The notes under the pieces are model-generated. The model did no database searches, was not told the DNA's origin, and saw nothing but the letters and a program-made list of their open reading frames with translations. Positions 30,743 through 59,903 of a stretch of DNA of 64,000 nucleotides are shown in pieces (within the stretch, counting starts at the first letter, position 1; each line of letters opens with the position of its first letter). The position numbers and the translations under genes are program-made. The stretch is from the NCBI GenBank assembly GCA_905480575.1, contig CAJQQZ010000114.1, forward strand, positions 308 through 64,307, in the 5' to 3' direction. Source of the DNA: an uncultured Alphaproteobacteria bacterium (GTDB taxonomy: Bacteria; Pseudomonadota; Alphaproteobacteria; UBA7985; CAJQQZ01).

Positions 30743-30772
30743 GTTGATTCGAGATAGATTAAGGAAATCTCT

Positions 30773-31408: not shown

Positions 31409-31414
31409 TCGAAC

Positions 31415-32170: not shown

Positions 32171-32299
32171 GGTGCCAAAATCTCACGGCTATTTGAGTAA
32201 ACGTTTCTGGTTCCATTTCTGAATCTTCTTATATCAAAGGAGCCAAGTTTTTCTTGGTAGTTTCGTGCTGCGTCCCCCGCTACCAGCACTGAAATTTTG

Positions 32300-32336
32300 A
32301 GAGCGCTCACCCTTATAGGTTGGGCGCTCTTTTTTA
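32300..32336 (+). terminator. Rho-independent terminator hairpin (AGAGCGC...GCGCTCT plus T6)
   Basis: Perfect 7-bp stem with a 17-nt loop followed by TTTTTT. Preceded by further stem-loops (CCAAG-ttttt-CTTGG, and alternative GGTAG/CTACC versus GTGCTG/CAGCAC). Confidence 0.5.
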
Positions 32337-32398
32337 TGGTCTGCGCGTCAAAAATCGTTAGGTTAGGCATCTGATGAATTTGGCTAAGGAAACACGCA

Positions 32399-33196
32399 AT
32401 GGCTCTCAAAATCGTAACATGGAATATCAACGGCATTCGCCCTCGTACGGAGAACCTTTGCAGATTTTTAACGGAATATCAGCCTGATGTAATCTGTCTT
32501 CAGGAAATCAAAATTCAAACGGATGCCTTTCCTGGTGATCCCTTCCGAGAGCTAGGGTACGAGCACCAAGCCATTGCCGGTCAAAAAGCCTATCACGGTG
32601 TGGCCATTCTCTCAAAACTTCCCTTTGCCGATCAGTTTTCATGCCCTTGGGGTGGCGAAAGCGACGCTCGCCATGTCGCTGTCAAACTTGCCAATGATCT
32701 TGAAGTTCATTCAATCTACATTCCCGCCGGGGGCGATGTCCCAGATCCCAGCGTCAATGTGAAGTTTGACCATAAACTGCGCTTTTGGAACGATATGAAA
32801 GATTGGTTCGCAAAAGAGCGTTCAACCGATCAAATGATCCTCGCCAACGGCGACTTTAACGTTGCTCCGCTTGAAACGGACGTTTGGAATCATAAACGGT
32901 TGGTTAAGTCAGTGGGCCATAGCCCTATCGAGGTTGAGCATTTAGAAGCGGCAAAGGCTTCTCTCGATTGGACCGATCTACCCCGTGAATATGTGCCATC
33001 GGACCAATTCCTCTATAGCTGGTGGGGCTACCGCTACAAGCTGGCAGTAGAAAAAGATTATGGCTGGCGCTTGGATCACAGCTGGGCAACACCGGCCCTA
33101 AAAGAAAGAGTCACCAATTCTGAAGTCATAAAGCCAACAAGACTTTGGGAACGGCCCAGTGATCATGTGCCTATTTTGACAGAAATCGATTTGTAG
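32399..33196 (+). CDS. xthA: exodeoxyribonuclease III
   Basis: MALKIVTWNINGIRPR...VICLQEIK...SDHVPI ExoIII/APE signature. Confidence 0.9.
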   Translation: MALKIVTWNINGIRPRTENLCRFLTEYQPDVICLQEIKIQTDAFPGDPFRELGYEHQAIAGQKAYHGVAILSKLPFADQFSCPWGGESDARHVAVKLANDLEVHSIYIPAGGDVPDPSVNVKFDHKLRFWNDMKDWFAKERSTDQMILANGDFNVAPLETDVWNHKRLVKSVGHSPIEVEHLEAAKASLDWTDLPREYVPSDQFLYSWWGYRYKLAVEKDYGWRLDHSWATPALKERVTNSEVIKPTRLWERPSDHVPILTEIDL

Positions 33197-33198
33197 AA

Positions 33199-33702
33199 AT
33201 GCCGACTGAGACAAAATCCTATCACTATCATCGTCCAGGGCTTCACGGAGATTTGGTCTTGGGCATATCCGGGCTTTGTGCTGGACTAGTCTTTACCTTT
33301 GCCGCTCTCGAGACAAGGTTTCTTTTCTTTCTCTTTTTGGTTGTTACGACCTTGGCTCTTTATTTTAGCGCCAACAGCTTGCGTCGTTATTGGATTGAAA
33401 TTCAGACTGATGACAAAGGGATAAAGCTGTTATCTAGAGGCAGCGAAAAATGTCTTATCAAATGGTCAGAAGTAAAATCCATTAAACTTCGGTTTTTTGG
33501 CAGCAAGTCTCAGCGTGAAAAAGGCAAAGGCACTTTGTCTTTGACAATGACGGATCAGAACAAGGCCAAGATAGCCTTTGAATCTGGTTTAGTTGATTTC
33601 GACGAATTAGCGCGATTATGCTTCGAACAAACTCAGGACTCTTCGGTTGAGATGGACGCTGTTTCTGTCGGGAACTTCGAGGCCGTTGGAGTACGGCTTT
33701 GA
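33199..33702 (+). CDS. hypothetical membrane protein (2 TM helices plus a PH-like soluble domain)
   Basis: Two hydrophobic helices (GISGLCAGLVFTFAAL, LFFLFLVVTTLALYF) followed by about 100 charged residues. ATGA overlap with the downstream MFS gene. Confidence 0.4.
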   Translation: MPTETKSYHYHRPGLHGDLVLGISGLCAGLVFTFAALETRFLFFLFLVVTTLALYFSANSLRRYWIEIQTDDKGIKLLSRGSEKCLIKWSEVKSIKLRFFGSKSQREKGKGTLSLTMTDQNKAKIAFESGLVDFDELARLCFEQTQDSSVEMDAVSVGNFEAVGVRL

Positions 33703-34883
33703 CAACCAAGTCAGACGGAACCAATTGGAATCTGTTCTTCTTCGGATTTTTTATTGCCGTTTACGCAGCTTTTTTGCAGTTTAAGCTGACTCCAGCCCTG
33801 CCTGAAATGATGCAGCTCTACAGCTATGATCCAGCGGTCGCTGGAGCATTCATGTCCGTTTATGCGATCATAGGGTTTTTCTTGTCACCTTTGATTGGCC
33901 GGTGGTTATCGGGGCAGAAAGTAAAACAACTCATATTGGCGGTGTTGGTTTGTTCCTTTGTCGCCCAGGGCGTAGCCATTTTTGCAAGCCATTCTAGTGT
34001 GATCATGTTGGCGAGTCGGACCATGGAAGCCATAACTTTCGCTGTTTTCGCCATCGGCGGCCCGGTTATCGTTGGGCAAGCCGCCAGTGAAAAATTCCGT
34101 CCTCTCGGTATTGGAATATCCTCAACGTGGATGCCAAGTGGTATCCTTATCTCGTCAGTTGCTTACTATTGGTTCGCAGATGATTTCGGATGGTCTGTTC
34201 TATGGTATTTTGGCCTGGCTGGTGCTTTGTCACTCCTTCTTTGGACGGTGCTGTCCAATTTCAACAAACCTCAAGCAGCCACTACTGCCGGAAAGCCGAG
34301 TTTAAGTCTCACAAAAGCAGAAGAAATCAGCCTCTTGCTGGCCACGTCGATATTTTTGTTATGGTCCATTCAATTCAACGCTTACATGACTTGGTTCACA
34401 ACCTACGTCACTGACACTTTAGGCTATCATCCGGTGGATGCTGTATGGGTTTTCATGTTACCGGTCATTGTGATCATTTTCGCAAATGTTCCCGTTGGGC
34501 TCGCGCAAACCACAGGCCGAATTACATTGATTCTATTGACGGTAGGTTTGGTTATTCAGGCTTTGTCCTGGGTATTGGGCCTCTACAAGAATGAAACCTT
34601 CCAGGTTATCGCCCTTATCGCTTATGGGATTGGTGCGGGGATTGTTCCTGCTGCTTTATTTGGCTGTCCCAAAGCGATCGTTGGCAGTGAAAAATACGCG
34701 ATGGCTTTCTCCCGGATGATGACAGGGCGCTACATCGGCGTGTTTTTGGGACCAATTCTAATCGGAATCGCCATCCGGCAGGATATTTCCTGGGATTTGG
34801 TCATGGGGATAGCCGCCATTATGACCGCTATCCCACTTATCTTTGCTGGCTTACTTTACAAGCGTCTTTACTCAAGAAGCTAA
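33699..34883 (+). CDS. MFS transporter
   Basis: About 12 predicted transmembrane segments with an MFS motif-like G-R-W-L-S-G loop. Confidence 0.75.
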   Translation: MTTKSDGTNWNLFFFGFFIAVYAAFLQFKLTPALPEMMQLYSYDPAVAGAFMSVYAIIGFFLSPLIGRWLSGQKVKQLILAVLVCSFVAQGVAIFASHSSVIMLASRTMEAITFAVFAIGGPVIVGQAASEKFRPLGIGISSTWMPSGILISSVAYYWFADDFGWSVLWYFGLAGALSLLLWTVLSNFNKPQAATTAGKPSLSLTKAEEISLLLATSIFLLWSIQFNAYMTWFTTYVTDTLGYHPVDAVWVFMLPVIVIIFANVPVGLAQTTGRITLILLTVGLVIQALSWVLGLYKNETFQVIALIAYGIGAGIVPAALFGCPKAIVGSEKYAMAFSRMMTGRYIGVFLGPILIGIAIRQDISWDLVMGIAAIMTAIPLIFAGLLYKRLYSRS

Positions 34884-35570
34884 GCGGTAACCACCTGCTT
34901 CTGTCACCAAAATTGCTGCGTTCGAAGGATCACGTTCGATTTTTTGGCGCAGCCGGTAGATATGTGTTTCGAGTGTGTGGGTGTTAACGCCAGCGTTGTA
35001 GCCCCACACTTCATTCAGTAAAGTTTCCCGGCTGACAACCTGTGTGCCTCTGCGATAGAGATATTTGAGAATGGCTGTTTCTTTTTCTGTTAATCGGATC
35101 TTTTTATTCGTTTCATTGTCTTGAAGAATTTTGGCACTTGGTTGGAACGAATAGGGTCCCACCGTGAAAATCGCATCATCACTTTGCTCATGCTGACGCA
35201 ATTGAGCACGGATTCTGGCCAGCAACACATTGAGACGAAAGGGCTTCGCGATGTAGTCGTTTGCACCCGCATCCAACCCAAGGATCGTATCCGCGTCACT
35301 GTCGGCGCCAGTCAACATAATGATCGGCGCCTTTAGCCCGTTTTTACGCATAAGGCGACAAGCATCGCGGCCATCCATGTCTGGCAAACCTACGTCCAAC
35401 AAAACGATATCAAAGTTTTCGTTCTTTGCGGACTCGACCGCGTCAGATCCTTTATCGTTTTCAACGATTTGGTAGTCTTCATGAAGAACGAGCTGCTCGG
35501 AAAGCGTTTCGCGTAGACTTTCGTCATCATCGACCAACAATATTCTGCGTGTACCCGCTGTATCGCTCAC
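34872..35570 (-). CDS. OmpR/PhoB-family response regulator (no cognate kinase adjacent)
   Basis: Receiver domain ILLVDDDESL...VLLDVGLPDMDG...IMLTG and winged helix LTEKETAILKYL...YRLRQKI. Confidence 0.8.
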   Translation of the reverse strand: MSDTAGTRRILLVDDDESLRETLSEQLVLHEDYQIVENDKGSDAVESAKNENFDIVLLDVGLPDMDGRDACRLMRKNGLKAPIIMLTGADSDADTILGLDAGANDYIAKPFRLNVLLARIRAQLRQHEQSDDAIFTVGPYSFQPSAKILQDNETNKKIRLTEKETAILKYLYRRGTQVVSRETLLNEVWGYNAGVNTHTLETHIYRLRQKIERDPSNAAILVTEAGGYRLAS

Positions 35571-35620
35571 TCAAATACCCCTTTTGAACAATAGAATTCG
35601 TATCTTTACCAATATAGGTA

Positions 35621-35692
35621 ATTCACACAGCGATGTGAATAGATAGGCGGGCTGTTCACAGATGTTCGTCACTTTTGTGAGCGGTTGTGAGC
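35621..35692. promoter_or_regulatory. cluster of TTCACA/TGTGA(A/G) motifs: 7-bp inverted repeat ATTCACA-N6-TGTGAAT, then TTCACA, then tandem TGTGAGC-N3-TGTGAGC at 10-bp spacing
   Basis: Read directly in the divergent intergenic region between the response regulator and the ribA-like gene. The periodicity is typical of OmpR-family binding sites. Confidence 0.3.
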
Positions 35693-35729
35693 ACTAGTGC
35701 ATGGCTGAAAGATCGCTGCCGGGTACAAA

Positions 35730-36911
35730 ATGACGCTTGACAGGGCTTTGGCTTTATCCCAAACGTCCGCCGTGTTTAATTGGGGTACCTACCCATTTGT
35801 TTGTCAAAAAGAAATTCCAGCATTTATGACCACTGAGAGCCAGGAAGCCATTTATCAAGTTGATCGTGCCATCGGCCAGATCAGACGCGGCGGTCAGGTT
35901 TCTTTTGAAACAAGATCTGGCGAGCGATATCTTTTTTGTGCTGCAGAGTTTTTGGATCGTGATTCAGAAGATTATTCGGCCGCTTCTTGTTTCTTCGCCT
36001 TACCGGAAAACCGGTACCTTTTTTTGAAGCATGGGCAGTACGATTTTTCGAAGTCTTATGATTCAGCGGTCAGACTATCATCATTTGACGATGTCCAATT
36101 GGCGGCTGAACAGTTAACGACTGATAAAGACAGTTCTCTCGGTGATGACTTTCCGGCTTGTGATCTTTCTCACGAGTTGAAGCCTGTTTTGCGCTTATTG
36201 AAATGGGCATATGCTTTGCCGGTTGCATTAATGAAGCCTTTAGCTTCTGAAGAAAAAGCGCCTGCTTCTGTACCTTGGCTATCTGAAGATTTGTTGGAAA
36301 CTTACTTATTCAGTTTACCTTCGTCGATAAAACTTATTTCCAGTGCAAAACTGCCGATCGCCGCAACGGAACAGGCTGAAATTTTGGCCTATGGCTCCAG
36401 ATCTTCCGCCCAGGAACATTTTGTTCTTCGTATTGGCCACCCAAACAAAAACAAATCTGCACCCCTTGTGAGAATGCATTCGGAGTGTTTCACTGGCGAT
36501 TTGTTGGCAAGTCTGCGTTGTGATTGTGGTTCACAATTGCACAGCGCCATTGATCTTTGTGTTGAAGCAGGTTTTGGTCTCATTCTCTACCTTCATCAGG
36601 AAGGCCGCGGTATTGGACTGGCAAACAAAGTCCGTGCTTATGCTCTGCAGGATCAAGGGTTGGACACCGTTCAGGCCAATGCCGTTCTAGGTTTTCACCC
36701 CGACGAACGAGATTTTGCGGTAGCGAAGTCTATTCTTGAATCCCTTGGCATCAACAAGTTGCACCTCATTTCCAACAATCCCTACAAAAGGGAAAGTTTG
36801 GAGAAAGAGGGTTTTAACGTCGAGCGACTCGTGCCGTTAAAGATCGCAGCGACGAGCCATAGCAAAGCCTATCTCGACACCAAAGTCGAAAAAATGGGCC
36901 ACAAGCTTTAG
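35730..36911 (+). CDS. ribA: GTP cyclohydrolase II with N-terminal degenerate DHBP-synthase(RibB)-like domain
   Basis: The C-terminal about 195 aa align to E. coli RibA (RMHSECFTGD...SLRCDCG...HQEGRGIGLANKVRAYALQDQG...ERDF...YLDTKVEKMGH). The N-terminus has RSGERYLFCAAEFL in place of RibB's DRENEGDLIFAAE. An alternative start exists at ATG 35826. Confidence 0.75.
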   Translation: MTLDRALALSQTSAVFNWGTYPFVCQKEIPAFMTTESQEAIYQVDRAIGQIRRGGQVSFETRSGERYLFCAAEFLDRDSEDYSAASCFFALPENRYLFLKHGQYDFSKSYDSAVRLSSFDDVQLAAEQLTTDKDSSLGDDFPACDLSHELKPVLRLLKWAYALPVALMKPLASEEKAPASVPWLSEDLLETYLFSLPSSIKLISSAKLPIAATEQAEILAYGSRSSAQEHFVLRIGHPNKNKSAPLVRMHSECFTGDLLASLRCDCGSQLHSAIDLCVEAGFGLILYLHQEGRGIGLANKVRAYALQDQGLDTVQANAVLGFHPDERDFAVAKSILESLGINKLHLISNNPYKRESLEKEGFNVERLVPLKIAATSHSKAYLDTKVEKMGHKL

Positions 36912-36925
36912 GATTTCATTTTGCC

Positions 36926-37597
36926 CTAGGTTATCGGTGGTCGGCTACCGAAAAGCGCACTGCCCACACGGACATGGGTAGCACCAAGTTCAACCGCGAT
37001 TTCAAAGTCTGAACTCATTCCCATGGACAAGGATTTCAAGTTCAATCGATCAGTCCATTTGTGGAGCAACGCAAAGTGTGGACCAGGATGATCATCAACT
37101 GGCGGAATACACATTAGGCCTTCTACTTTGAGAGTGTTTTCCATGCAGTGGTCAAAGAGCTGTTGCAGATCATTGAGTTCAACGCCGGCCTTTTGAATCT
37201 CGCCACCTGTGTTAACCTGAATAAAGCAAGACAAGTTGCGTTCTTGTTTCTCCATTTCTTTGGATAACGCGGTCACCAGTTTTGGGCGATCAACCGTTTG
37301 AACGACGTCGAAATTCGCGACAACTTCTTTCACCTTGTTGGTTTGCAGGGGACCGATCAGATGTAGCTCAAGATTTGGGTTGTCATCTCTCAACTGGGGG
37401 AATTTTTGTAGAGCTTCTTGAACTCTGTTCTCACCAAAAACTAACTGACCAGCTGCTAGGGCGGCTTTAACTTCCTCAACTGGTTTGGTTTTACTAACCG
37501 CAATCAGCTGAACATCACGCGGCGATCGACCGGCTTTTTCGGCAGCTTCAGCGATTTTGGCGTTGGTCTCGTTCCAAGTGTCAATAGAGAACATCAT
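36926..37597 (-). CDS. yggS: YggS-family pyridoxal-phosphate homeostasis protein
   Basis: LIAVSKTKP (PLP lysine), HLIGPLQTNK and GLMCIP motifs. Confidence 0.85.
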   Translation of the reverse strand: MMFSIDTWNETNAKIAEAAEKAGRSPRDVQLIAVSKTKPVEEVKAALAAGQLVFGENRVQEALQKFPQLRDDNPNLELHLIGPLQTNKVKEVVANFDVVQTVDRPKLVTALSKEMEKQERNLSCFIQVNTGGEIQKAGVELNDLQQLFDHCMENTLKVEGLMCIPPVDDHPGPHFALLHKWTDRLNLKSLSMGMSSDFEIAVELGATHVRVGSALFGSRPPIT

Positions 37598-37787
37598 ACC
37601 CTCAATTTGTCTATATGAGTGTCCTTTAATTCAATGGCGCGTTCTAAGCAATCCAGTCAGGCCATTTGATTAGAGGAATTCTCCCCGATTTGCGGGGAAA
37701 TTTCATTCTCTGCTGGCAGTTTTCTGACAGAAAATTTATAAGCAGCACCATATTCTAGGCTGATTTTTGTTTTAAAGAGCCAAATAG

Positions 37788-38378
37788 ATGAAAAATACGG
37801 ATAAAGACATGCCTATTATTGTGCGATGGCTCCTTGTACTCACTGTTGTTTTTGCGACTGCTGCTTGCGGCGGTAATCGCGATACGGATGAGGACGGCAA
37901 AAGAAAAAGCAGAGTTCAAACGAACCAAACATCAGATGAGAATGGTGAAGGTATTGTCATCATCGGTAAACGTAAGAACAAGAATCAACTGTCTGTAGCG
38001 CGCTTTTTCGGCGGTGGTGATGATGGGTACGACACCAGTTCAGACCTGAATGTCAATCAACATCTATGGCGCGCGTCTGTGACAACACTTTCCAAGTTGC
38101 CTTTGAAAACCGTAGATCCTTATTCAGGGATCCTTGAGACGGAATGGTATACGCCTGCTGGTGGCAAAAACGAGCAAGTCAGAACATCTGTGTTTATCCT
38201 TGGCCCGCAATTGCGTACCGAAAACATTCGAGTATCTGTTTTTGTAAGAGAGCGTGATGACACTGGCGTGTGGTCGATCAGACCGGGCAACCCTTCCACA
38301 GCTACAAAAGTGGAAAATGTAATTTTGAAGGCCGCACGACGTTCCCGAGTCGCCGCCAACGAACAATCAGAATCTTAA
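37788..38378 (+). CDS. lipoprotein (possibly DUF3576 family, found upstream of leuS in alphaproteobacteria)
   Basis: Signal peptide with lipobox LATAAC|GG. Conserved position ahead of leuS. Confidence 0.4.
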   Translation: MKNTDKDMPIIVRWLLVLTVVFATAACGGNRDTDEDGKRKSRVQTNQTSDENGEGIVIIGKRKNKNQLSVARFFGGGDDGYDTSSDLNVNQHLWRASVTTLSKLPLKTVDPYSGILETEWYTPAGGKNEQVRTSVFILGPQLRTENIRVSVFVRERDDTGVWSIRPGNPSTATKVENVILKAARRSRVAANEQSES

Positions 38379-38458
38379 TATCAATCAAAAATGTTATCGA
38401 CGACGCCCCAGCCTACTTGGCTGGGTTTGGTTGTTGAAACGAAAATAAAGAAGAAGTT

Positions 38459-41008
38459 ATGGATCGCTATAACGCAAAAACGACCGAGCAAAAGTGGCAG
38501 AGCTTTTGGGAAGAAAATGGTTCTTTCACCGCCGCCAAAGACACCAGCCGACCGAAATATTATGTTTTGGAAATGTTTCCTTATCCCAGTGGTAACATCC
38601 ACATGGGGCATGTCAGGAACTATACACTGGGCGATGTGGTCGCGCGATACAAGCGCGCTAAGGGTTTTAACGTATTGCACCCGATGGGTTGGGACGCATT
38701 TGGCCTACCCGCGGAAAACGCAGCCTTTGAAAGGAAAATTCATCCAGCTGCTTGGACCTACCAAAACATAGCTTCAATGCGCGGTCAGCTTAAATCGATG
38801 GGTTTGTCTTTGGATTGGTCGCGCGAGTTTGCGACTTGTGATCCGACTTATTACCGTCACCAGCAAGCCATGTTCAATAAGATGCTGGAAAAGGGCCTGG
38901 TTTACCGCAAAGAGTCTTGGGTTAACTGGGATCCAGTCGAAAACACAGTTTTGGCCAACGAGCAAGTTGAAAACGGCCGTGGGTGGCGCTCCGGCGCTTT
39001 GGTTGAAAAACGTCGTTTATCGCAATGGTTCTTTAAAATCACGTCCTACGCTGATGATTTGTTGGAAGCGATTGGAGGGTTAGAACGTTGGCCAGCCAAA
39101 GTACGGTTGATGCAGGAAAACTGGATCGGTAAGTCTTCTGGTGCCTACATCGATTTCGAAATCGAAGGTCAGTCAGATCGGCTGAAAGTTTTCACTACGC
39201 GTCCCGATACGCTTTTTGGTGCCTCCTTCTGTGCAGTGTCGCCGGAACATCCTATCGCAGAAAAGTTATCTAAAGATAATGCTGCACTTTTGGAATTCGT
39301 TCAGGAATGTCAACGTAGTGGTACCAGTGAGGCCGTTATTGAAACCCTCGAGAAGAAAGGTTTCGATACAGGTCTGAAGATCAAACATCCTTTGATCGAA
39401 GGTAAAACGCTTCCTCTCTACATCGCTAACTTTGTGTTGATGGATTATGGCACAGGCGCGATTTTCGGCTGCCCGGGTCATGATCAGCGAGATTTGGATT
39501 TCGCTCGAAAGTATGATTTGCCAGTCGTCGCCGTGGTCAGTCCAAAAGGCAAAAAGGATTTCGCAATCGATGACGAAGCCTACACTGGCCCTGGCGAAAT
39601 CATTAATTCTGAGTTCTTGAACGGACTTGCAATCGAAGATGCAAAGAAAGCCGTCATTGAACGGCTGGAGAAGACTGATATTGGTCAGGGGGCAACTGTA
39701 TTTCGCCTTCGTGACTGGGGTGCTTCCCGCCAACGCTACTGGGGTTGCCCCATTCCGATTATCCACTGTGATGATTGCGGTGCGGTGCCGGTGCCTGAGA
39801 AGGATCTACCAGTTCAATTGCCTGAAGACGTTGAGTTCGACAAACCTGGCAATCCCTTGGATCATCACCCAACTTGGTCCCATGTTAATTGCCCAAGTTG
39901 TGGGAAGGCTGCGCGCCGTGAAACGGATACGCTTGATACTTTCGTAGATTCCTCTTGGTACTTTGCTCGGTTTTGTTCACCGCAAAGCGGCGAACCAGTG
40001 GAACGCGATGAGCTCGACTATTGGATGTCGGTGGATCAATACGTCGGTGGCGTTGAACACGCCGTATTGCACCTTCTTTATGCACGCTTCTTTACACGTG
40101 CCATGAAAGAAATTGGTTATGCCGGTGTGAAAGAACCCTTCGACGGTCTATTCACTCAAGGCATGGTTTGCCATGAGACCTATAAAGACACTGACGGGAA
40201 ATGGTTGTCACCTGACGAAATAGAGAAGAATGCGGACGGATCGCACAAGGCTCTGAGAGATGGTTCCTCGGTGGAAACCGGTCGCGTCATTAAAATGAGT
40301 AAATCAAAGCGAAACGTCATCGACCCCGCTGTCATCATTGATGTTTATGGAGCAGATACCGCCCGTTGGTTCATGCTATCTGACAGCCCACCAGAGCGGG
40401 ACATGGAGTGGACTGAATCTGGCATCGAAGGCGCTTGGCGTTTTACTCAGCGCTTGTGGCGTCTTGTTCAGGAAAACCTCGCAACGATTAATGCGACAAA
40501 CCGCATTGACAGCCCTGCCGGAAAAGCTCTTCGGGCTAGTTTGCACAAGGCGATTGATTCGGTCTCAAAAGATATCGAATCATTCCAATTCAACCGCGCG
40601 GTAGCTCGTATTCATGAGTTGGCAAACGACATATCTAAGGCCTTAAAAGAAGCCGATCAGGTCAGTCCGGCAACTCTGAAAGAAACATTCTCTACTTTGG
40701 CACAGTTAATCTGCCCAATGATGCCACACCTGTCCGAAGAAATTTGGCAGGTTTTGGGTAACAGTCGTTCCCTCACAGAAGTCGAATGGCCAACAGCCGA
40801 TCCCTCGCTTTTGGTCGACGATTCGGTCACTATTGCTATTCAGGTTAATGGAAAAGTGCGCGGCACCATTGAAATTGCCCGTGATAGCGAGGAAAAGCTT
40901 GTTCAAGAACAAGCCTTGGCGTTAGAATCGGTTCTGAAATTTGTTGATGGCAAGCCTTTGCGCAAGGTCATCGTCGTCCCGAATCGGATTGTAAATGTTG
41001 TCGTTTAA
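38459..41008 (+). CDS. leuS: leucine--tRNA ligase
   Basis: HMGH ([15 protein letters not shown]) and KMSKS motifs. 849 aa. Confidence 0.95.
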
Positions 41009-41522
41009 CCTGTTTAGGGGTTCAGTTCAGAAAGTCGCTCTTATTCTTGTGCTCGGTTTGGGCGTTGGAACGCTATCGAGCTGCGGATTCGAGCCACTAC
41101 ACGGGTCTGCTAACTCAGTGGATAACAGTCTCGGTTCGACTAGGATCCAGATTATCTCTGAACGTAACGGCCAGATGTTGCATAATCATCTTCGTGATAA
41201 ATTAAATCCTGAGGGCTTGGCCCCAAACCCTTTGTACGGGTTGACGGTTGCGCTCAAAACAAAGACACGCACAACTGGCTTCACGAGTGAGCAGAGTGCG
41301 ACTTATGCGACGATCATTGCCACAGCCGAATACTCGCTTTTCAAACAGAGCGACAAGGAAGAAGTTTACTCTGGAACTGCGGAAGCTGTGACTTCTTACA
41401 ACAAGTTCGTGATGCCCTATACCAACCGTTATACGGAGCGTGATGCTACAGAGCGAGCACTGGCGGCACTGAGTGAAGACATCTACAATGGGCTCAGTAC
41501 TTACTTCGCGACAAACCATTAA
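40995..41522 (+). CDS. lptE: LPS-assembly lipoprotein LptE
   Basis: Lipobox GTLSSC|GF. Conserved leuS-lptE-holA order. Confidence 0.65.
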
Positions 41523-41534
41523 TCGAGTGTAGGC

Positions 41535-42566
41535 GTGAAAGTTGCAGCCAACCGATCGGAAGCTTTCTGCCGAAATCCCGATCATTCGATCAACCTTTTT
41601 CTGCTTTACGGCAGTGATAAAGGAATGGTGAGAGACCATTTGCGTTTCATCATCAAGGCCTACAAGGGCCGTGCAAATACAAACTTAGCTGTCACTAAAC
41701 TTGCCATCGAAGAAGTTCGCTCTAACCTTAGCCTGCTGTATGATGAAGTTCTGGGGTTTTCTTTGTTGGCTGAGCAAAGGCTGATCACTATTGAGGAAGT
41801 CACGGACACCGACAAAACCCTGGTGCAGAGTCTACTTGAGGATAGTTCAAAGCTCACGGCTCCGTTGGTCATGTTAGCTGGAAGCTTGACGGCGAAATCT
41901 CAGCTGCGGAAACTGTGCGAAAAACACGATGCAGTTGCCGCTATCCCTGCTTATGCGGACGATCAGCGTTCATTACCGAACTTTGTCCGCACTTTCTTCC
42001 AAGAAAACAACAAAATGATATCGCAGGACGCCGTTTTCTTCCTAAGCCAACAGTTAGGGGTCGACAGAGGCGTTACCAGGCAGGAACTCGACAAAATCCT
42101 GACTTTTGCGGGTGATAAGGCTTCAATCGAGTTGGAAGATGTTCAGGCGCTAAGCGCAAGTGAGTCGGGATTCTTCCTCGACGATTTACTTTACGCTGTT
42201 TTTGATGGAAAAGTGCATGACGTTGAACGGCTTTATAGCTTGGCTGTGGAAAATGCTGTTCAACCTTCGATCATTGTACAACAGTTATCAAAGCATGCGT
42301 TGAGGCTTCATGGCGTTAAGGCGTTGGTGGAGCAAGGAACCGCTGTCGACAGAGCAATTATGATGACGGGTGGCCCGCTTTTTTGGAAGGTGGGTGATCG
42401 ATTTAAGCAACAAGCCAGAACTTGGCAACTTGGGCAATTGCTTGATACTTTTACTAAATTGGCTGAAGCAACCAAACAAAGCCGCAGCAATCTAGGAGTC
42501 GATGAAGCACTCTGTCATCGTGCTCTATTATCAGTGGCGGCGCAATCACCGTTAAGAAGACGTTGA
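41535..42566 (+). CDS. holA: DNA polymerase III delta subunit
   Basis: 343 aa sitting after lptE. Helical C-terminus matching the delta-subunit layout. Confidence 0.7.
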   Translation: MKVAANRSEAFCRNPDHSINLFLLYGSDKGMVRDHLRFIIKAYKGRANTNLAVTKLAIEEVRSNLSLLYDEVLGFSLLAEQRLITIEEVTDTDKTLVQSLLEDSSKLTAPLVMLAGSLTAKSQLRKLCEKHDAVAAIPAYADDQRSLPNFVRTFFQENNKMISQDAVFFLSQQLGVDRGVTRQELDKILTFAGDKASIELEDVQALSASESGFFLDDLLYAVFDGKVHDVERLYSLAVENAVQPSIIVQQLSKHALRLHGVKALVEQGTAVDRAIMMTGGPLFWKVGDRFKQQARTWQLGQLLDTFTKLAEATKQSRSNLGVDEALCHRALLSVAAQSPLRRR

Positions 42567-42577
42567 TCTTGAAGTTT

Positions 42578-43471
42578 TTACTTCTTTAGCTTTTCCACGA
42601 TGTTTTCAAGCTGATCCAAGTTTTGATAATGAAAACTTACAACGCCTTTTGCACCTTTAGATAAAACGTCGACTTTTAAACCGAGTAAAGCCTCTAGATC
42701 TTTTTCAAACTGTCTAATGTTCGGATCTTTTGCTTTATCCTCATTTGCCTTTTTGTCTTTGGAGCTCGGTTCTTGGCCCTCTTTTTTGACCAAAGCTTCC
42801 GTCTGTCGGACGTTAAGCGATAGATTCACGACCGCTTGTGCCAGCTTTTCTGGATTGATTGCAGGTAGCAAAGCTCTCGCGTGGCCGGCGGATAAACGTC
42901 CATCCAGCAACATATCTTTGACGCCAGCGGGCAACTGTACCAAGCGCATCATATTGGCGATATGTGGTCGGCTTTTACCTGAAATCTCAGAAATTTTCTC
43001 TTGGGTGTAGGAAAACGCCTCTGCCAAGCGCAAATAGCCTTCTGCTTCTTCCAATGGGTTGAGATCTTCCCGTTGAATATTCTCAACGATGGCGATCTCT
43101 AGGGTTCTTTGATCGTTTAACTCCCGAATTAGAACGGGAACTTCATGCAATTGCGCTAACTGAGCCGCCCGCCATCGCCGCTCGCCAGCGATAATCTCAT
43201 AAGTATCCGCTGAATCGCCTGTGCTACGGACCAAAATTGGTTGGATAACACCGTTGGCTTTGATTGAGTCGGCTAGATCTTGAAGAGCTTGCGCATCAAA
43301 TTCTCGTCGAGGCTGGAATTTCCCGGCTTTTATCTGCTCGATAGCGATGGTTTGAGGACCAGTAGGTGCTAGTGTCGCCTCTTCAGTGGACAACGTCGCC
43401 GCAATCCCTTCTTCGCCCAGGAGAGCCGCTAAACCCTTTCCCAGAGCTTTCTTCTTTGGTGCTTTAGCCAT
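42578..43471 (-). CDS. parB: chromosome partitioning protein ParB
   Basis: MAKAPKKKALGKGLAALLG N-terminus and a ParB box (IIAGERRWRAA), with a helix-turn-helix. Confidence 0.9.
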   Translation of the reverse strand: MAKAPKKKALGKGLAALLGEEGIAATLSTEEATLAPTGPQTIAIEQIKAGKFQPRREFDAQALQDLADSIKANGVIQPILVRSTGDSADTYEIIAGERRWRAAQLAQLHEVPVLIRELNDQRTLEIAIVENIQREDLNPLEEAEGYLRLAEAFSYTQEKISEISGKSRPHIANMMRLVQLPAGVKDMLLDGRLSAGHARALLPAINPEKLAQAVVNLSLNVRQTEALVKKEGQEPSSKDKKANEDKAKDPNIRQFEKDLEALLGLKVDVLSKGAKGVVSFHYQNLDQLENIVEKLKK

Positions 43472-43481
43472 TGTTACTCTC

Positions 43482-44240
43482 CTAGCGTTTCAACATTTCA
43501 GCAGCGAGTTGAATATAGGCCTTCGCACCTGACGACTTCAGATCATAAAGAATAACAGGTTGACCAAAACTTGGCGCTTCGGAGATCCGAACGTTCCTTG
43601 GAATTACTGTTTTAAAAACTTTATCACCCAGAAAAGCCCGAACATCATCTTCAACCATCACACAGAGGTTGTTCCGGCGATCAACCATGGTGAGAACAAC
43701 ACCAAAAATTTCCAATTTGGGATGAATGGCCTGTTTTATACGCTCGATTGTCTTCAGTAGGTGCGTAAGTCCTTCCAATGCATAAAATTCAGCCTGCAAA
43801 GGGATCAAAACAGATTGTGCAGCGACGAGCGCGTTAATTGTCAACAAGCCTAAGGCAGGTGGGCAATCAATCAGAATATAGTCATAAGCCTCACTAACAG
43901 TCGCAAGGGCGTTTTTCAGACGAAATTCTCTCTTATCAAAATCTGTCAGTTCGATTTCAGCGGCTGCCAAGTTCACATCTGCTGCAACAAGGTCCAGACC
44001 CTCAATGCCTGTAGATTGGATAGTTGTTTTTAAGTCAGATTCGCCCAGCAAAACCTTGTAAAGGTTCTGTTCGCGTTCATCTTGTTCAAAACCAAAGCCC
44101 GTTGTTGCATTTCCCTGTGGGTCCCCGTCAACGATGAGGACTTTTTTCCCACAAGCCGCTAAACCAGTGGCCAGATTCACTGCTGTTGTGGTTTTGCCAA
44201 CTCCGCCTTTTTGGTTTGCGAGAGCAATGATTTTAGCCAT
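43482..44240 (-). CDS. parA: chromosome partitioning ATPase ParA
   Basis: Deviant Walker A KGGVGKTTT. 252 aa. Confidence 0.9.
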   Translation of the reverse strand: MAKIIALANQKGGVGKTTTAVNLATGLAACGKKVLIVDGDPQGNATTGFGFEQDEREQNLYKVLLGESDLKTTIQSTGIEGLDLVAADVNLAAAEIELTDFDKREFRLKNALATVSEAYDYILIDCPPALGLLTINALVAAQSVLIPLQAEFYALEGLTHLLKTIERIKQAIHPKLEIFGVVLTMVDRRNNLCVMVEDDVRAFLGDKVFKTVIPRNVRISEAPSFGQPVILYDLKSSGAKAYIQLAAEMLKR

Positions 44241-46782: not shown

Positions 46783-46798
46783 TGTTTCACGTGAAACA
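46783..46798. promoter_or_regulatory. parS centromere site (TGTTTCACGTGAAACA, perfect consensus)
   Basis: Exact 16-bp palindrome read in the mnmG-mnmE intergenic spacer. Confidence 0.8.
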
Positions 46799-48173: not shown

Positions 48174-48189
48174 TGTTTCACGTGAAACA
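48174..48189. promoter_or_regulatory. parS centromere site (TGTTTCACGTGAAACA, perfect consensus)
   Basis: Second exact 16-bp palindrome, in the rho-mnmE intergenic spacer. Confidence 0.8.
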
Positions 48190-49636: not shown

Positions 49637-50071
49637 TTAAAACGGCCGCATAACAATCATAACAACAATAACAATCATCAAAACCGCCGGAACTTCATTA
49701 ATAATCCGGAAGAATTTCTCACTGTGTCTATTGCTATCGGAAGCAAAAGCGCGTTGGCATTGACCCAAAAAGACATGAACATAGATCATGATGAACAAAG
49801 ATAACAATTTGCACCACAACCAAAAAGAGCCCCAATCAACATTACCAAAGTAAAACAACAACAAAAGCCCGCTCAAAAAAGCCACAACAAAGGCTGGTGT
49901 CATGATGGCTGTTAACAAGCGCCGTTCCATCACTTTAAACGTTTCTACGGCGTCATTATTGTCTCTCAGCTGAACATGATAGACAAACAAACGCGGCAGA
50001 TAAAGCATTCCCGCCATCCAAGATATGACGGCAATAATATGAACGGCTTTGGTGAGAAGATAGAAATCCAC
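49637..50071 (-). CDS. hemJ: HemJ-family protoporphyrinogen IX oxidase (UPF0093 membrane protein)
   Basis: N-terminus KAVHIIAVISWMAGMLYLPRLFVYH is typical of HemJ. About 4 TM helices. Sits next to hemE. Confidence 0.55.
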   Translation of the reverse strand: MDFYLLTKAVHIIAVISWMAGMLYLPRLFVYHVQLRDNNDAVETFKVMERRLLTAIMTPAFVVAFLSGLLLLFYFGNVDWGSFWLWCKLLSLFIMIYVHVFLGQCQRAFASDSNRHSEKFFRIINEVPAVLMIVIVVMIVMRPF

Positions 50072-50074
50072 GCT

Positions 50075-51112
50075 CTAATCTCGTCTTACCAACTCAATCA
50101 ATCGGCTCACATGGTCTGGGTTAGTATACTGGATGATGCCATGTCCCAGGTTAAAAACAAAAGGGCCATCTTTAAGATTGCTGAGAATAGCAGCCACAGA
50201 ACTCTCTAGATGTTCACCGCCAACAAGTAGAGACACTGGATCCAAGTTACCCTGAACTGTTTTCTTCCTCTGTAAATTGTCCCGCGCCCAAGATAAAGGC
50301 AAAGACTGATCCAAGGAAAGACAATCAAGCTGCTCCGATTCAGCGAAAGAAAGATAGCCTAAACCCACGCCCCGCGGGAAAACTATGATTGGCACAGAAG
50401 GATGAACCGTCTTCACTTTATCAACGATGCGCAAAATAGGATCTAAAGACCAACGTTTGAGATCTCCTGCAGGTATAACACCTGCCCAAGAATCAAAAAT
50501 CTGAAGCGCTTCTGCGCCGGCGTCTAATTGCTTAATCAAGTAATCCGCTGTTGCATCCACCAACAAATCTATCAACCGCTGAAACAACTCCGGCTGACCA
50601 AATGCCCACTTTTTCAACTTCATGAAATCTTTAGTGCCGCCACCTTCAATCATATAGGAGGCGACGGTCCAAGGCGCACCAGCAAATCCAATGAGAGCGG
50701 TCTCACTTGGCAAAGACTCTTTTAGTCGACCGACAGTTTGGTAGACAGGACCAAGCGCCTCGTGAAGCTTATCGACAGATAAACGGTCCAGATCAGCTTC
50801 CCCTGTCAGGGCATCCAACTTCGGGCCTTCACCTTCGGCGAACCAAAGTTTTTGTCCAAGAGCGTGGGGAATGACCAGAATATCTGAAAACAAAATCGCA
50901 GCATCAAAGCCATAACGACGGATCGGCTGAAGAGTCACTTCACAAGCCAATTCCGGATTAAAACAAAGATCAAGAAAGGAACCAGCATCTCTCCTGACTT
51001 CTTTGTACTCTGGTAAATAGCGACCTGCTTGTCGCATTAACCAAATGGGTGGACGACTAGTCTTTTGTCCTCGCAAAGCTTGGATGAAAAGTTTTTCTTC
51101 CGAACGCATCAA
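50075..51112 (-). CDS. hemE: uroporphyrinogen decarboxylase
   Basis: PIWLMRQAGRYLPEY signature. 345 aa. Confidence 0.9.
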   Translation of the reverse strand: MMRSEEKLFIQALRGQKTSRPPIWLMRQAGRYLPEYKEVRRDAGSFLDLCFNPELACEVTLQPIRRYGFDAAILFSDILVIPHALGQKLWFAEGEGPKLDALTGEADLDRLSVDKLHEALGPVYQTVGRLKESLPSETALIGFAGAPWTVASYMIEGGGTKDFMKLKKWAFGQPELFQRLIDLLVDATADYLIKQLDAGAEALQIFDSWAGVIPAGDLKRWSLDPILRIVDKVKTVHPSVPIIVFPRGVGLGYLSFAESEQLDCLSLDQSLPLSWARDNLQRKKTVQGNLDPVSLLVGGEHLESSVAAILSNLKDGPFVFNLGHGIIQYTNPDHVSRLIELVRRD

Positions 51113-51546
51113 ACACTCTTATTAATTAAAAGAAAGATATAAAGAATCTTTAGTTGTTGTTGTAGGTCATGTTGAACATGGGGATACTATTTTATCCACA
51201 TTTTGTCTCCTAAATCCACGCGGCGCTTTAACACTGTGAGTAAGATCGAAGAAAAATAAAAAATACCGTTTATTTACAATAGGTTACACAATAATAGGTA
51301 AATCGAAAAACGTCGTTGCTCTACTCTACTGTTCAGCACTGTTAAAAACTTATCCAGCCAAAATAACTTTAGGATAGAAAATAGGCTTTTACAGTTTCTG
51401 ACGAGAATTTCGAATTTTACTCACAAACCACAGAATTCAATCCCGACCTATTCACAGCTTTTTCCTCATGCAAAGATCTCCATCTGGGAACTCGAATGAG
51501 GGTGTGATAGGAAGAACCAATTGCAATCTGACTCTAGAGCCAAATT
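51113..51546. other. candidate chromosomal replication origin (oriC): AT-rich 434-bp gap between divergently transcribed hemE and the RP001-like gene
   Basis: Perfect DnaA box at 51192..51200. Degenerate boxes at 51349..51357 (TTATCCAGC) and 51448..51456 (CTATTCACA). AT-rich tract around 51249..51310. Strand switch: all genes from 42.5 to 51.1 kb are on the minus strand and all from 51.5 to 55.6 kb are on the plus strand. Conserved hemE/RP001 synteny. Confidence 0.6.
51192..51200 (+). promoter_or_regulatory. DnaA box TTATCCACA (perfect consensus)
   Basis: Read directly in the sequence. Confidence 0.6.
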
Positions 51547-52380
51547 ATGGAAAATGAAAAGTTTAATCTGCATCTCGTGTCAGACTCGACTGGAGAAACA
51601 ATTATCTCTGTTGCAAGAGCTTGTTTAGCTCAGTTTGAAAACGTCGCCGTGGAACATCATGTTCACACGCTAATTAGAACTTCAGCGCGTATGGACCGAG
51701 TCATATCCGCCATTGAGGCTCACCCTGGCCCTGTTCTCTACACCTTGGTTGATGATGAACTTCGAACAAAGTTGGACGAGACTTGCCGTCAGTTGGCCGT
51801 GCCTTCCATACCACTTCTAGACCGGGCTATTCATATGATGGCGAACTTCTTTGGTGTGGATGCAAGGGCACAACCTGGTCGTCAACATGCGCTGGATAAA
51901 GACTATTTCTCCCGTATTGAAGCGATGGACTACACTCTGGCGCATGACGATGGCCTTTGTCCGGAAGAGTTCGAATCAGCCGATGTGGTTTTGATTGGTG
52001 TTTCACGATCGTCCAAAACGCCAACCTCTGTCTACCTTGCAAATCGTGGCGTAAAAACGGCTAATATACCCTTCGTTCCAGGGCAAAAGTTGCCAGAATC
52101 CGTACTAAATTTATCTCGGCCTTTGGTGATAGGTTTGACGAAAGATCCAAAACAGCTGGTGCAGTTGAGGAGAAATCGCCTGCGTTCTTTGGGCGTAATC
52201 AATGAAACAACCTACACTGATATCGATGCAATCAAAGCTGAAGTGGCTGAAGCACGACGACTATTCTCCGAAAAGAACTGGCATATGATCGATGTGACAC
52301 GACGATCAATTGAAGAAACAGCCGCGACCATCATTAATCAGCTGGAAAAGAAACGACAGCGGGAAAAAGAAGATGCCTGA
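51547..52380 (+). CDS. pyruvate,phosphate dikinase / PEP synthase regulatory protein (DUF299 kinase/pyrophosphorylase; RP001 homologue)
   Basis: AMDYTLAHDDG and P-loop LIGVSRSSKTPTSVYLA align to E. coli PpsR (YdiA). Confidence 0.8.
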   Translation: MENEKFNLHLVSDSTGETIISVARACLAQFENVAVEHHVHTLIRTSARMDRVISAIEAHPGPVLYTLVDDELRTKLDETCRQLAVPSIPLLDRAIHMMANFFGVDARAQPGRQHALDKDYFSRIEAMDYTLAHDDGLCPEEFESADVVLIGVSRSSKTPTSVYLANRGVKTANIPFVPGQKLPESVLNLSRPLVIGLTKDPKQLVQLRRNRLRSLGVINETTYTDIDAIKAEVAEARRLFSEKNWHMIDVTRRSIEETAATIINQLEKKRQREKEDA

Positions 52381-57190: not shown

Positions 57191-58969
57191 CTACGTGGAC
57201 TCTTTCTTCTTCTTACGATCACTTGGATCGGAGAGTTTTGTGCCTCTCATAATAATCCACTGCTGTGCAACGGATAGAATATTGTTCCAGGTCCAGTAGA
57301 TCACAAGACCAGCAGCGAACCCACCAAGGATGAATGTGAAGACCAAAGGCAGGAAGCGCATAATCTGAGCCTGAGTCGGATCGGTTGGCTGAGGATTAAG
57401 CAATTGCTGTCCATACATTGAGATACCCATGAGGATCGGCCAGATACCGATGGAGAATATCGCAAGGATACCAGCTGTAGGCACATCATAAGGCAGCAAA
57501 CCGAAGAGATTGAGGATGGATGTTGGATCAGGCGCGGACATATCTTTGATCCAACCAAAAAATGGCGCGTGGCGCATCTCGATGGTTACATAGAACACCT
57601 TGTAGAGAGCAAAGAAAACTGGAATCTGAACAACAATGGGCAAGCAACCAGAAAGGGGGTTAGCGCCTTCCGATTTATAGAGCGCCATCATCTCTTGCTG
57701 GAGTTTTTGACGATCATCCCCGACTTTCTTTTTGATCTCCTCGATCTTTGGCTGCAACAAGCGCATTTTCGCCATGGAGCGATAGGACTTGTTGGCGAGT
57801 GGGAACAAAATCAGTTTTACGATAACCGTCAGGATCAATACAGAAACGCCAAAGTTACCGATGATGCCGTAGATCCACTGCAGGACCACGAAAATCGGTT
57901 TGGTTAGAATGTAGAACCAACCAAAATCTACGGCACGGTCAAAGTTGTAAATACCGTACTTCTCCGCATAATCATCTAAGATCGAAATCTCTTTGGCGCC
58001 CGCGAATACCCGGGTTGTTTCTTCAACGGTACTGCCAGCGAGCAGCGGACGCGACTCATGTTTCAAATTTGCCTGGTAGACGTCTTGGTTGTTACGAGGC
58101 TGGTATTGGAACCCGGCTGTAATTGTGTCTTCGGTCTCCGGCATCAAGCTAACCAACCAATACTTGTCGGTGATGCCTAACCAACCGCCTGTTGAACTGA
58201 AGGATAGGTTGCCGTCATCCTGGAGGTCATCATAATCGACTTCTTGGAGTTTTTCGCTGAGAACGCCAACCAAACCTTCATGCAAAATATAAAGCTGAGA
58301 AACTTCAGGGGTGCCTGTGCGGTTGATCAACCCGTAAGGAGCGACTTCCAAATTGAGATCGCTATTGTTCTCGATCGATTGTTTAACCGTGAACAGGTAG
58401 TTGTCGTCCATGCTGAATGTACGATGGAAGACGAGGCCTGCACCATTGTCCCAGCTTAGATCTACAGAATTCCCAGGAGTGAGCTCTGATGCGCTAGAGG
58501 TCCAAACCGTGTCTGATTTAGGTGTTGGAACAGAGGCATCGCTCAGCAACCAACCAAATGAGGCGAAGTAAGGATTGGCAGTCCCGACCGGTGACATCAA
58601 TGAAACGTCTGGGCTGTCCTCTGCAATGGTTTCGTTATAGTTGGAAAGGATCAGATCATCCAGGCGACCACCGGTTAGATTGATCGATCCTCTGATGTTT
58701 GAATTTTGAAAAGGTACACGAGAGGATTCCGCAATGGCCTGTTCACGAGGAATTTCAACAACGAGCGCTTCTCCCAACTTCGGCAGGGTTCCAAGGTCGT
58801 TAGAACCCCTCACGCCTTCCTCTCCAGAAACACCGGCAGTTGCAGCGCGCTCGGTTTGCAGCTGTCTTGCTTTTTCATCTGCTGGAGCAACGAAAAAAAC
58901 CTGCCAGCCCAGTAAAACAACAAGCGATAGAGCTATCGCTATGATCATGTTTTTGTTCTGATCTTCCAT
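57191..58969 (-). CDS. yidC: membrane protein insertase YidC
   Basis: 592 aa with a large periplasmic domain and a C-terminal 5-TM core (PLANKSYRSMAKMRLLQPK...). Confidence 0.9.
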   Translation of the reverse strand: MEDQNKNMIIAIALSLVVLLGWQVFFVAPADEKARQLQTERAATAGVSGEEGVRGSNDLGTLPKLGEALVVEIPREQAIAESSRVPFQNSNIRGSINLTGGRLDDLILSNYNETIAEDSPDVSLMSPVGTANPYFASFGWLLSDASVPTPKSDTVWTSSASELTPGNSVDLSWDNGAGLVFHRTFSMDDNYLFTVKQSIENNSDLNLEVAPYGLINRTGTPEVSQLYILHEGLVGVLSEKLQEVDYDDLQDDGNLSFSSTGGWLGITDKYWLVSLMPETEDTITAGFQYQPRNNQDVYQANLKHESRPLLAGSTVEETTRVFAGAKEISILDDYAEKYGIYNFDRAVDFGWFYILTKPIFVVLQWIYGIIGNFGVSVLILTVIVKLILFPLANKSYRSMAKMRLLQPKIEEIKKKVGDDRQKLQQEMMALYKSEGANPLSGCLPIVVQIPVFFALYKVFYVTIEMRHAPFFGWIKDMSAPDPTSILNLFGLLPYDVPTAGILAIFSIGIWPILMGISMYGQQLLNPQPTDPTQAQIMRFLPLVFTFILGGFAAGLVIYWTWNNILSVAQQWIIMRGTKLSDPSDRKKKKEST

Positions 58970-58999
58970 TGAGAAGAGCCTTCTTATGTTATTCTAGTT

Positions 59000-59275
59000 T
59001 CAATTTTTGTTGGGCGGGTGACAAGTACGGCCAGAGTCAATCCTCTCCGGCACCGGGTCAAATCCACTTCCACCCCAAGGATGGCAACGCATTATCCGTT
59101 TTAGGGCCAAAAGACCACCGTAAAATGGTCCATGCGCGGTCAAGGCCTCCATGGCATATTCCGAACAAGTCGGCTGAAAGCGACAACGGGGAGGAATAAG
59201 TGGAGATATGCAATAGCGATAAAACAGAATGAGCGCTTTGAACAACCAAAGAAAAGGCGTTGTGAGCCAACTCAT
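59000..59275 (-). CDS. yidD: membrane protein insertion efficiency factor YidD
   Basis: [23 protein letters not shown] signature. Confidence 0.8.
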
Positions 59276-59652
59276 TTTCGTTTTCCTTTTGTCGCTATTA
59301 ACCCTGGCAGTTTCTTGAATGCCCGTTCGGTTTCGCTCGTCAACTTAGCGAAGTCGTAGTCGACAGTGGAATGCCGCGCGACTAGCACAAAGTCCAAACT
59401 TTGATCGACATTGGCTTCCAATTCGCGGACTAAGGACCTTAATCGTCGTTTAGCTTTGTTGCGGGCAATTGCATTGCCGACCTTCTTGCTCGCTGTAAAA
59501 CCAAAGCGTGCTATATTCTCCTCATCATCAGACAAAGACTCAGAACGCAAAACGGGCCGTCTCATGGCTTGAACTATCAAACCTGGACTGACCCATTTTT
59601 GACCTTGCTTAGCGATCCGAACAAATTCGACGCGCTTTTTCAAAGTAATCAT
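59272..59652 (-). CDS. rnpA: ribonuclease P protein component
   Basis: 126 aa basic protein containing [23 protein letters not shown]. Confidence 0.85.
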
Positions 59653-59666
59653 CTGGCTGCTCCTAA

Positions 59667-59801
59667 GAGCAAAACCCTAAGCAGAAAGACGCTTACGACC
59701 TTTTGCCCGACGATTTGTAATAATCCGACGACCGCCTTTTGTGGCGATGCGAGAACGAAAGCCATGACGGCGTTTGCGAACCAGCACGGAAGGCTGATAA
59801 G
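59667..59801 (-). CDS. rpmH: 50S ribosomal protein L34
   Basis: Manual translation gives (V/M)[43 protein letters not shown] with a GTG start. Not in the supplied track because it is under 60 aa. Confidence 0.85.
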
Positions 59802-59903
59802 TGCGTTTCACGATTGAATCTCCGATGAAATGAGAGAGAAGTTGTTCACTGGCCGCGTGATATAAGCCCCAGGCTGGTGTGAGTCAATGATAAGTCACTG
59901 GAT

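Follow-up and report, generated by a model that had tools for sequence, protein, structure and literature searches.

A candidate hemE-type chromosomal replication origin in an uncultured marine alphaproteobacterium

Does the AT-rich gap between hemE and the DUF299 gene contain the origin from which the chromosome of an uncultured marine alphaproteobacterium is replicated? The gap lies within a 64-kb stretch of DNA (the window) that was analyzed in full, and a preliminary description had proposed it as a probable chromosomal origin. This interpretation is supported by the clustering of DnaA boxes, the unstable DNA that flanks them, a conservation footprint, the synteny of the locus, a 27-fold class-wide enrichment of boxes and the proximity of parS sites. 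Judged from its sequence and surroundings, the gap is highly likely to be the oriC of the main chromosome and to belong to the hemE-type alphaproteobacterial kind.

The hemE/DUF299 gap and its neighborhood

The hemE start codon is most likely the ATG at 51109; the ATG-start protein is present in public assemblies and the TTG-start version is absent. The gap therefore spans 51110-51546 and measures 437 bp rather than the 434 bp (51113-51546) given originally, and the accompanying claim of AT-richness holds, with 35% GC in the gap versus 48% in the window. The gap is the longest of the 18 window intergenic regions of at least 80 bp and contains the lowest 60-bp GC minimum among them (0.22), and its GC fraction of 0.35 is the lowest among window gaps longer than 100 bp. 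Searches for RNA families returned no Rfam match, either in the whole window at gathering thresholds or in the gap at E ≤ 1, and no tRNA gene was found to explain the gap. Small ORFs were rejected as gap content, only chance ORFs of 21-35 aa being present. A promoter and terminator scan of the gap gave one promoter-like match, fewer than the shuffle expectation. The repeats in the gap are short two-copy families only, besides the inverted copies of TTACTCACA.

Table 1. Features of the candidate origin and its neighborhood, with positions in the window
Feature	Positions	Strand	Description
parB and parA, chromosome partition genes	42578-44240	-	parB, TIGR00180 (42578-43471); parA, ParA-family matches
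Perfect parS palindrome TGTTTCACGTGAAACA, 16 bp	46783-46798		mnmG/mnmE gap, 4.3 kb from the candidate origin
Perfect parS palindrome TGTTTCACGTGAAACA, 16 bp	48174-48189		mnmE/rho gap, 2.9 kb from the candidate origin
hemJ, between rho and hemE	49637-50071	-	NCBIfam gene-order check
hemE, uroporphyrinogen decarboxylase, left boundary gene	50075-51109	-	TIGR01464, E = 7.6e-124
Candidate oriC, whole hemE/DUF299 intergenic region	51110-51546		437 bp, 35% GC
AT-rich stretch 1	51119-51179		Second least stable 60-mer of the window, z = 3.9
B1, DnaA box-like GTATCCCCA, 7/9	51179-51187	-	Inverted, 4 bp from B2; within invariant block 51180-51204
B2, perfect DnaA box TTATCCACA	51192-51200	+	Identical in L174; TTATCCACT in L175
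B3, weak box AAATCCACG, 6/9	51212-51220	+	Same direction as B2, 20 bp start to start; identical in L174, TAATCGACG in L175
Conserved GC cluster CGCGGCGC then TTTAACACTGTG	51219-51238		Nearly invariant in three species; between two DnaA boxes
B4, DnaA box-like TTACTCACA, 7/9	51235-51243	-	TGCTCCACA in L174; TTATCTACA (8/9) in L175
AT-rich stretch 2	51249-51309		Least stable 60-mer of the window, z = 4.0
DnaA box-like TTATCCAGC, 7/9	51350-51358	+	TTATCCTCC in L175; absent in L174
DnaA box-like TTACTCACA, 7/9	51417-51425	+	Inverted copy of B4 (inverted repeat I4); identical in L174
DnaA box-like CTATTCACA, 7/9	51448-51456	+	TAATCCACA (8/9) at the aligned L175 position
DnaA box-like TTTTCCTCA, 7/9	51460-51468	+	TTTTCC core conserved
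DUF299/PpsR-like kinase-phosphorylase (RP001, COG1806, yqfL homologue), right boundary gene	51547-52380	+	NF003742, E = 5.1e-98; Pfam PF03618

NCBIfam assignments place parB, parA, rsmG, mnmG, mnmE, rho, hemJ and hemE on the minus strand to the left of the gap, and the DUF299 gene, maf, coaE, dnaQ and an ArsP-type permease gene on the plus strand to its right. They agree with the neighborhood described earlier (rho-mnmE-mnmG-rsmG-parAB / hemE / RP001-maf-coaE-dnaQ) and with its divergent flanks, hemE on the minus and the DUF299 gene on the plus strand, and add hemJ between rho and hemE. Core housekeeping genes all around the gap indicate that the replicon is the main chromosome. The complete gene-strand switch that had been claimed at the gap exists locally, where minus-strand genes run for 8.5 kb to the left and plus-strand genes for 4 kb to the right, but it does not extend further. 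The genes left of parB (27992-42566) are mostly on the plus strand, and to the right of 55610, beyond the plus-strand block, argB, yihA, yidC, yidD, rnpA and rpmH are again on the minus strand. The strand switch at the gap is a pair of divergent operons and not a replicon-wide switch.

A search for dnaA found none in the 64-kb window, where all ORFs of 400 aa or more proved to encode other proteins. The rpmH-rnpA-yidD-yidC-yihA cluster adjoins dnaA and oriC in many bacteria. Here it lies on the minus strand at 57191-59811, 6-8 kb to the right of the gap, and the genes upstream of rpmH are fadJ and a thiolase gene, not dnaA.

Both parS palindromes are located 2.5-4 kb from the parA start, and parS and parAB together fall within 9 kb of the gap. 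The chance of a perfect parS match is about 1e-5 per site, and the two sites mark the predicted chromosomal centromere. In bacteria generally the centromere is located near the origin, as cited in the preprint on Azospirillum (bioRxiv 10.64898/2026.09.14.751567).

The gene order is a property of the class. Alphaproteobacterial loci were taken from GTDB species representatives and fetched through HemE, and about 70 of the 80 have the arrangement dnaQ-coaE-maf-DUF299 divergent from hemE-hemJ-rho. The median length of the homologous gap in these ∼70 loci is 418 bp, and the GC content of the gap is below that of its own locus in every case. The density of DnaA boxes with at most one mismatch is 4.12 per kb within the gaps versus 0.15 per kb in the flanks of 70 loci, which is the 27-fold enrichment, and perfect boxes occur at 0.72 versus 0.010 per kb in the same loci. 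In L001 (3617-6003), a locus from a Kiloniella sp. MAG, a 562-aa GGDEF-type (diguanylate cyclase-like) gene is inserted between the DUF299 gene and hemE, so that two segments of ∼230 and ∼470 bp replace the usual single gap.

DnaA boxes, conservation and unstable DNA

The perfect DnaA box previously reported at 51192-51200 on the plus strand reads TTATCCACA and is the sole perfect match in 64 kb. It is presumed to be the high-affinity anchor of the cluster, a putative role. One-mismatch boxes occur at 14 other sites in the 64-kb window, no more than expected by chance. The two additional 7/9 boxes of the preliminary description are an undercount, as seven were counted on the two strands, which brings the gap total to eight boxes with at most two mismatches (one perfect and seven 7/9) spanning 290 bp. 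The expectation from 5000 dinucleotide-preserving shuffles of the gap is 1.58 ± 1.22 boxes (P = 0.0002), and a perfect box arises in the same shuffles with P = 0.0046. A sliding 437-bp box count has a single window maximum of 9 at the gap, with 5 as the next best value, and in a ranking of the 64-kb window no other gap of at least 80 bp contained more than two boxes of at most two mismatches. Only one box in the gap is strong and the remaining boxes match at 6-7 of 9 positions. The second-highest density of DnaA box-like sequences, 5 per 437 bp, occurs at 42454-42890, where holA and parB meet at their 3' ends; this density lies within coding sequence and is probably due to chance.

Relatives of the source organism were used to trace a conservation footprint. 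The nearest named HemE relatives belong to the Kiloniellales (Pelagibius, Denitrobaculum and Kiloniella; 61-66% identity). Three relatives with 77-83% HemE identity came from a large protein collection, GTDB genomes and JGI metagenomes reached at most 63%, and a second search with the DUF299 protein added nothing new. L174 (HemE 82% identical) and L175 (77%) carry the whole gap, and both gaps contain eight boxes with at most two mismatches and have 33% GC versus 45-46% in the locus. The contig of the third relative, L173 (83%), ends 137 bp upstream of hemE, and of its positions 1-137 only the last 10 bp can be aligned with the other three gaps, which points to a rearranged origin region in L173 or to a misassembled contig end. 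Metagenome contigs of up to 436 kb match the window at 98.9-100% identity, and these strain-level contigs are 100% identical across the gap and therefore uninformative for footprinting.

Three-way alignment of the window with L174 and L175 shows that the block 51180-51204 (GGGGATACTATTTTATCCACATTTT) is invariant and that the block 51211-51237 (TAAATCCACGCGGCGCTTTAACACTGTG) is nearly invariant, the comparison covering three species only. The segment 51142-51166, with the GANTC at 51144, is also conserved in this alignment. The rest of the gap diverges among the three species and its central AT-rich part remains AT-rich. Binding-site positions are better conserved than the remainder of the gap, as the invariance of 51180-51204 illustrates. 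Several weak-box positions hold a better box in one species than in another, for example TTACTCACA at 51235-51243 and its counterparts TGCTCCACA in L174 and TTATCTACA in L175. This variation fits selection that acts on DnaA binding and not on one particular sequence.

In the set of 175 fetched loci, the GC cluster is confined to this clade. The contigs of this species and L174 are the only ones with the exact 14-mer GCTTTAACACTGTG, and L175 differs by one base. The cluster may be a binding site for a further factor. An imperfect inverted copy, CACTGTTAAA, is found at 51337-51346, across the AT-rich stretch from the cluster.

The stability of 60-mers over the whole 64-kb window was calculated from nearest-neighbour stacking energies. 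The two least stable 60-mers bracket the box cluster at 51179-51243, and in both L174 and L175 stability is likewise lowest in a pair of 60-mers at these positions, ∼30-40 and 160-170 bp upstream of hemE. The two stretches differ in what is conserved. AT-richness is kept across the three species in 51249-51309 and the sequence is not, and this stretch is the likelier and preferred candidate unwinding element. The sequence itself is conserved in 51119-51179, including AAGAATCTTT (the GANTC site at 51144-51148) and TTGTTGTTGTAGG; this stretch is probably the hemE promoter and leader, and it is the alternative candidate for unwinding. A scan of the window for DnaA-trio (BUS) modules by published rules, a DnaA box with at most two mismatches followed within 0-16 bp by at least three DnaA-trios (NAN on the trio strand), found none at the conserved boxes (PMC8287927). 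The window matches the pattern only once, at 51448, where the box is weak and not conserved, and the matches in L174 and L175 are elsewhere, the pattern being loose and prone to chance matches.

The CtrA motif TTAA-N7-TTAA is absent from the gap with zero or one mismatch and from the window as a whole, so the earlier statements that no full CtrA sites were seen and that CtrA control is not evident are both correct. The absence is expected because CtrA sites have not been seen in alphaproteobacterial origins outside Caulobacter and possibly Rickettsia (PMC4468827). IHF sites were scored in the strict form of a degenerate consensus, WATCAANNNNTTR, and the gap has no match on either strand. Raw GC skew follows gene orientation and continues to fall to the right end of the window without a turn at 51.3 kb. 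Third-codon-position skew regressed on gene orientation and side has the expected sign at 51.3 kb (+0.037), and splits near 11-15 kb fit better within the 64 kb covered. All three KOPS-like GGGNAGGG sites, a sample of three only, have the polarity expected for an origin at the gap.

A model for initiation and its alternatives

How bacterial origins work, applied to the anatomy, statistical significance, conservation and synteny of this gap, suggests the following mechanism. DnaA-ATP would bind the consensus box at 51192-51200, and the weaker boxes at 51179-51187, 51212-51220 and 51235-51243, together with the distant ones at 51350-51468, would then be filled cooperatively. The DnaA oligomer would melt one of the flanking AT-rich stretches. 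The likelier one is 51249-51309 because its AT-richness is conserved and its sequence is not, and the alternative is 51119-51179. Helicase loading would follow, with forks departing in both directions, and ParAB acting on the parS sites 2.9 and 4.3 kb to the left would segregate the duplicated origin region. The hemE gene and the DUF299 operon are transcribed divergently out of the one gap, as in Caulobacter.

The gap could instead be a divergent promoter region only, with DnaA serving as transcription factor for hemE, the DUF299 operon or both, and the origin could lie elsewhere, for example beside dnaA. The best-conserved stretch, 51142-51204, does sit in a promoter or operator position 35-95 bp upstream of the hemE start, the GC skew lends no support to an origin inside the 64-kb window, and dnaA is absent from the window. 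Eight boxes over 290 bp and the two least stable stretches in 64 kb nevertheless exceed the needs of an operator, parS is 2.9-4.3 kb away, and other alphaproteobacteria have their mapped or predicted origin in the homologous gap (PMC1914354, PMC6393856, bioRxiv 10.64898/2026.09.14.751567). Promoter and origin functions also coexist in Caulobacter (PMC6393856), which makes promoter activity compatible with an origin, and a promoter-only gap is improbable. Still less probable, indeed very unlikely, is a DnaA-titrating or reactivating locus (datA- or DARS-like) that is near the origin and is not the unwinding site. A DnaA-box cluster dominated by one strong site and the lack of a DnaA-trio module at the conserved boxes would suit such a locus, whereas the conserved AT-rich flanks and the class-wide synteny with mapped origins favor an origin. 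Loci of the datA and DARS type are known from E. coli and are not known to have a conserved linkage to hemE, which also counts against this explanation.

The DnaA box is itself AT-rich and 7/9 matches are common in the window (2.7 per kb), so that the cluster might be a chance by-product of AT-rich intergenic DNA. Dinucleotide-preserving shuffles yield 1.58 boxes where 8 were observed, it is the boxes that are conserved within the gap, and the homologous gap is 27-fold enriched over 70 loci; a chance origin of the cluster is scarcely credible. None of these alternatives explains the combination of box clustering, unstable flanks, conservation, synteny and parS proximity as well as a replication origin does.

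Within the origin interpretation, a more specific possibility is that this Kiloniellales-related lineage has a hemE-type origin with a control logic unlike that of Caulobacter. The consensus box would work within the invariant inverted pair TGGGGATAC-TATT-TTATCCACA in an origin with no CtrA or IHF sites or DnaA-trios, an origin regulator would bind CGCGGCGC-TTTAACACTGTG (51219-51238), and the box cluster would have unwinding elements to its left and right. This fuller proposal is speculative and, taken as a whole, unlikely.

Comparison with known origins

The arrangement at the Bacillus subtilis oriC BUS is TTATCCACA-AATCCACAG-GCCC. The gap bears a superficial likeness to it, with a consensus box followed by a same-direction weaker box (AAATCCACG) and then the GC cluster. 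The boxes here are 11 bp apart versus 0-3 bp in B. subtilis, and there is no run of at least three trios within 16 bp.

The origin of Caulobacter crescentus, Cori, is experimentally mapped between hemE and the DUF299/COG1806 gene (CCNA_00001) and shares with this gap its boundary genes and their divergent transcription; in Caulobacter the hemE and duf299 transcription starts are inside the origin (PMC6393856, PMC1914354). Multiple DnaA boxes, an AT-rich region, GANTC sites and parS/parAB a few kilobases away are likewise common to both (PMC6393856, PMC1914354). Cori differs in having five CtrA sites, an IHF site and DnaA boxes that are moderate or weak only (G- and W-boxes), whereas the box here is a perfect consensus, CtrA sites and a strict IHF consensus are absent, and there is no sequence homology to Cori. 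A consensus-strength DnaA box, compared with the deliberately weak boxes of Caulobacter, and the clade-specific motif CGCGGCGC-TTTAACACTGTG make the present gap mildly unusual.

The hemE/COG1806 boundary also marks the predicted origin of Rickettsia (PMC1914354). Predicted origins of Rickettsia prowazekii and other Rickettsiales (hemE-COG1806 or hemE-COG1253) resemble this gap in the hemE boundary, a length of ∼400 bp, AT-richness and the presence of a few DnaA boxes (PMC1914354). They differ in that the predictions include CtrA and IHF sites, and a rearrangement in Wolbachia has removed the COG1806 partner. In Azospirillum baldaniorum, of a Rhodospirillales-type lineage, the chromosomal oriC (a DoriC/Ori-Finder prediction) occupies the interval from yqfL, which is the DUF299 gene, to hemE. 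It contains six DnaA boxes of mixed orientation, and parAB and two palindromic parS sites of 16 bp are nearby (bioRxiv 10.64898/2026.09.14.751567). The present locus shares this gap and has two 16-bp parS palindromes and parAB in its vicinity as well; parS is ∼10-12 kb from oriC in A. baldaniorum versus 2.9-4.3 kb here.

For an uncultured marine alphaproteobacterium, the analysis locates on its contigs a likely replication start and, close to it, the centromere (parS). The positions can be used for orienting assemblies, for estimating growth rates from coverage (peak-to-trough ratio) and for comparing origin control among Alphaproteobacteria, and a consensus DnaA box without CtrA sites is a case for such a comparison. 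The lineage is poorly sampled. What is known of origins is unchanged, as the hemE/DUF299 position is already textbook knowledge for the class and hemE serves as an indicator gene in Ori-Finder (PMC2275245). The gap is very probably an origin of the standard kind known already from Caulobacter, Rickettsia and Azospirillum.
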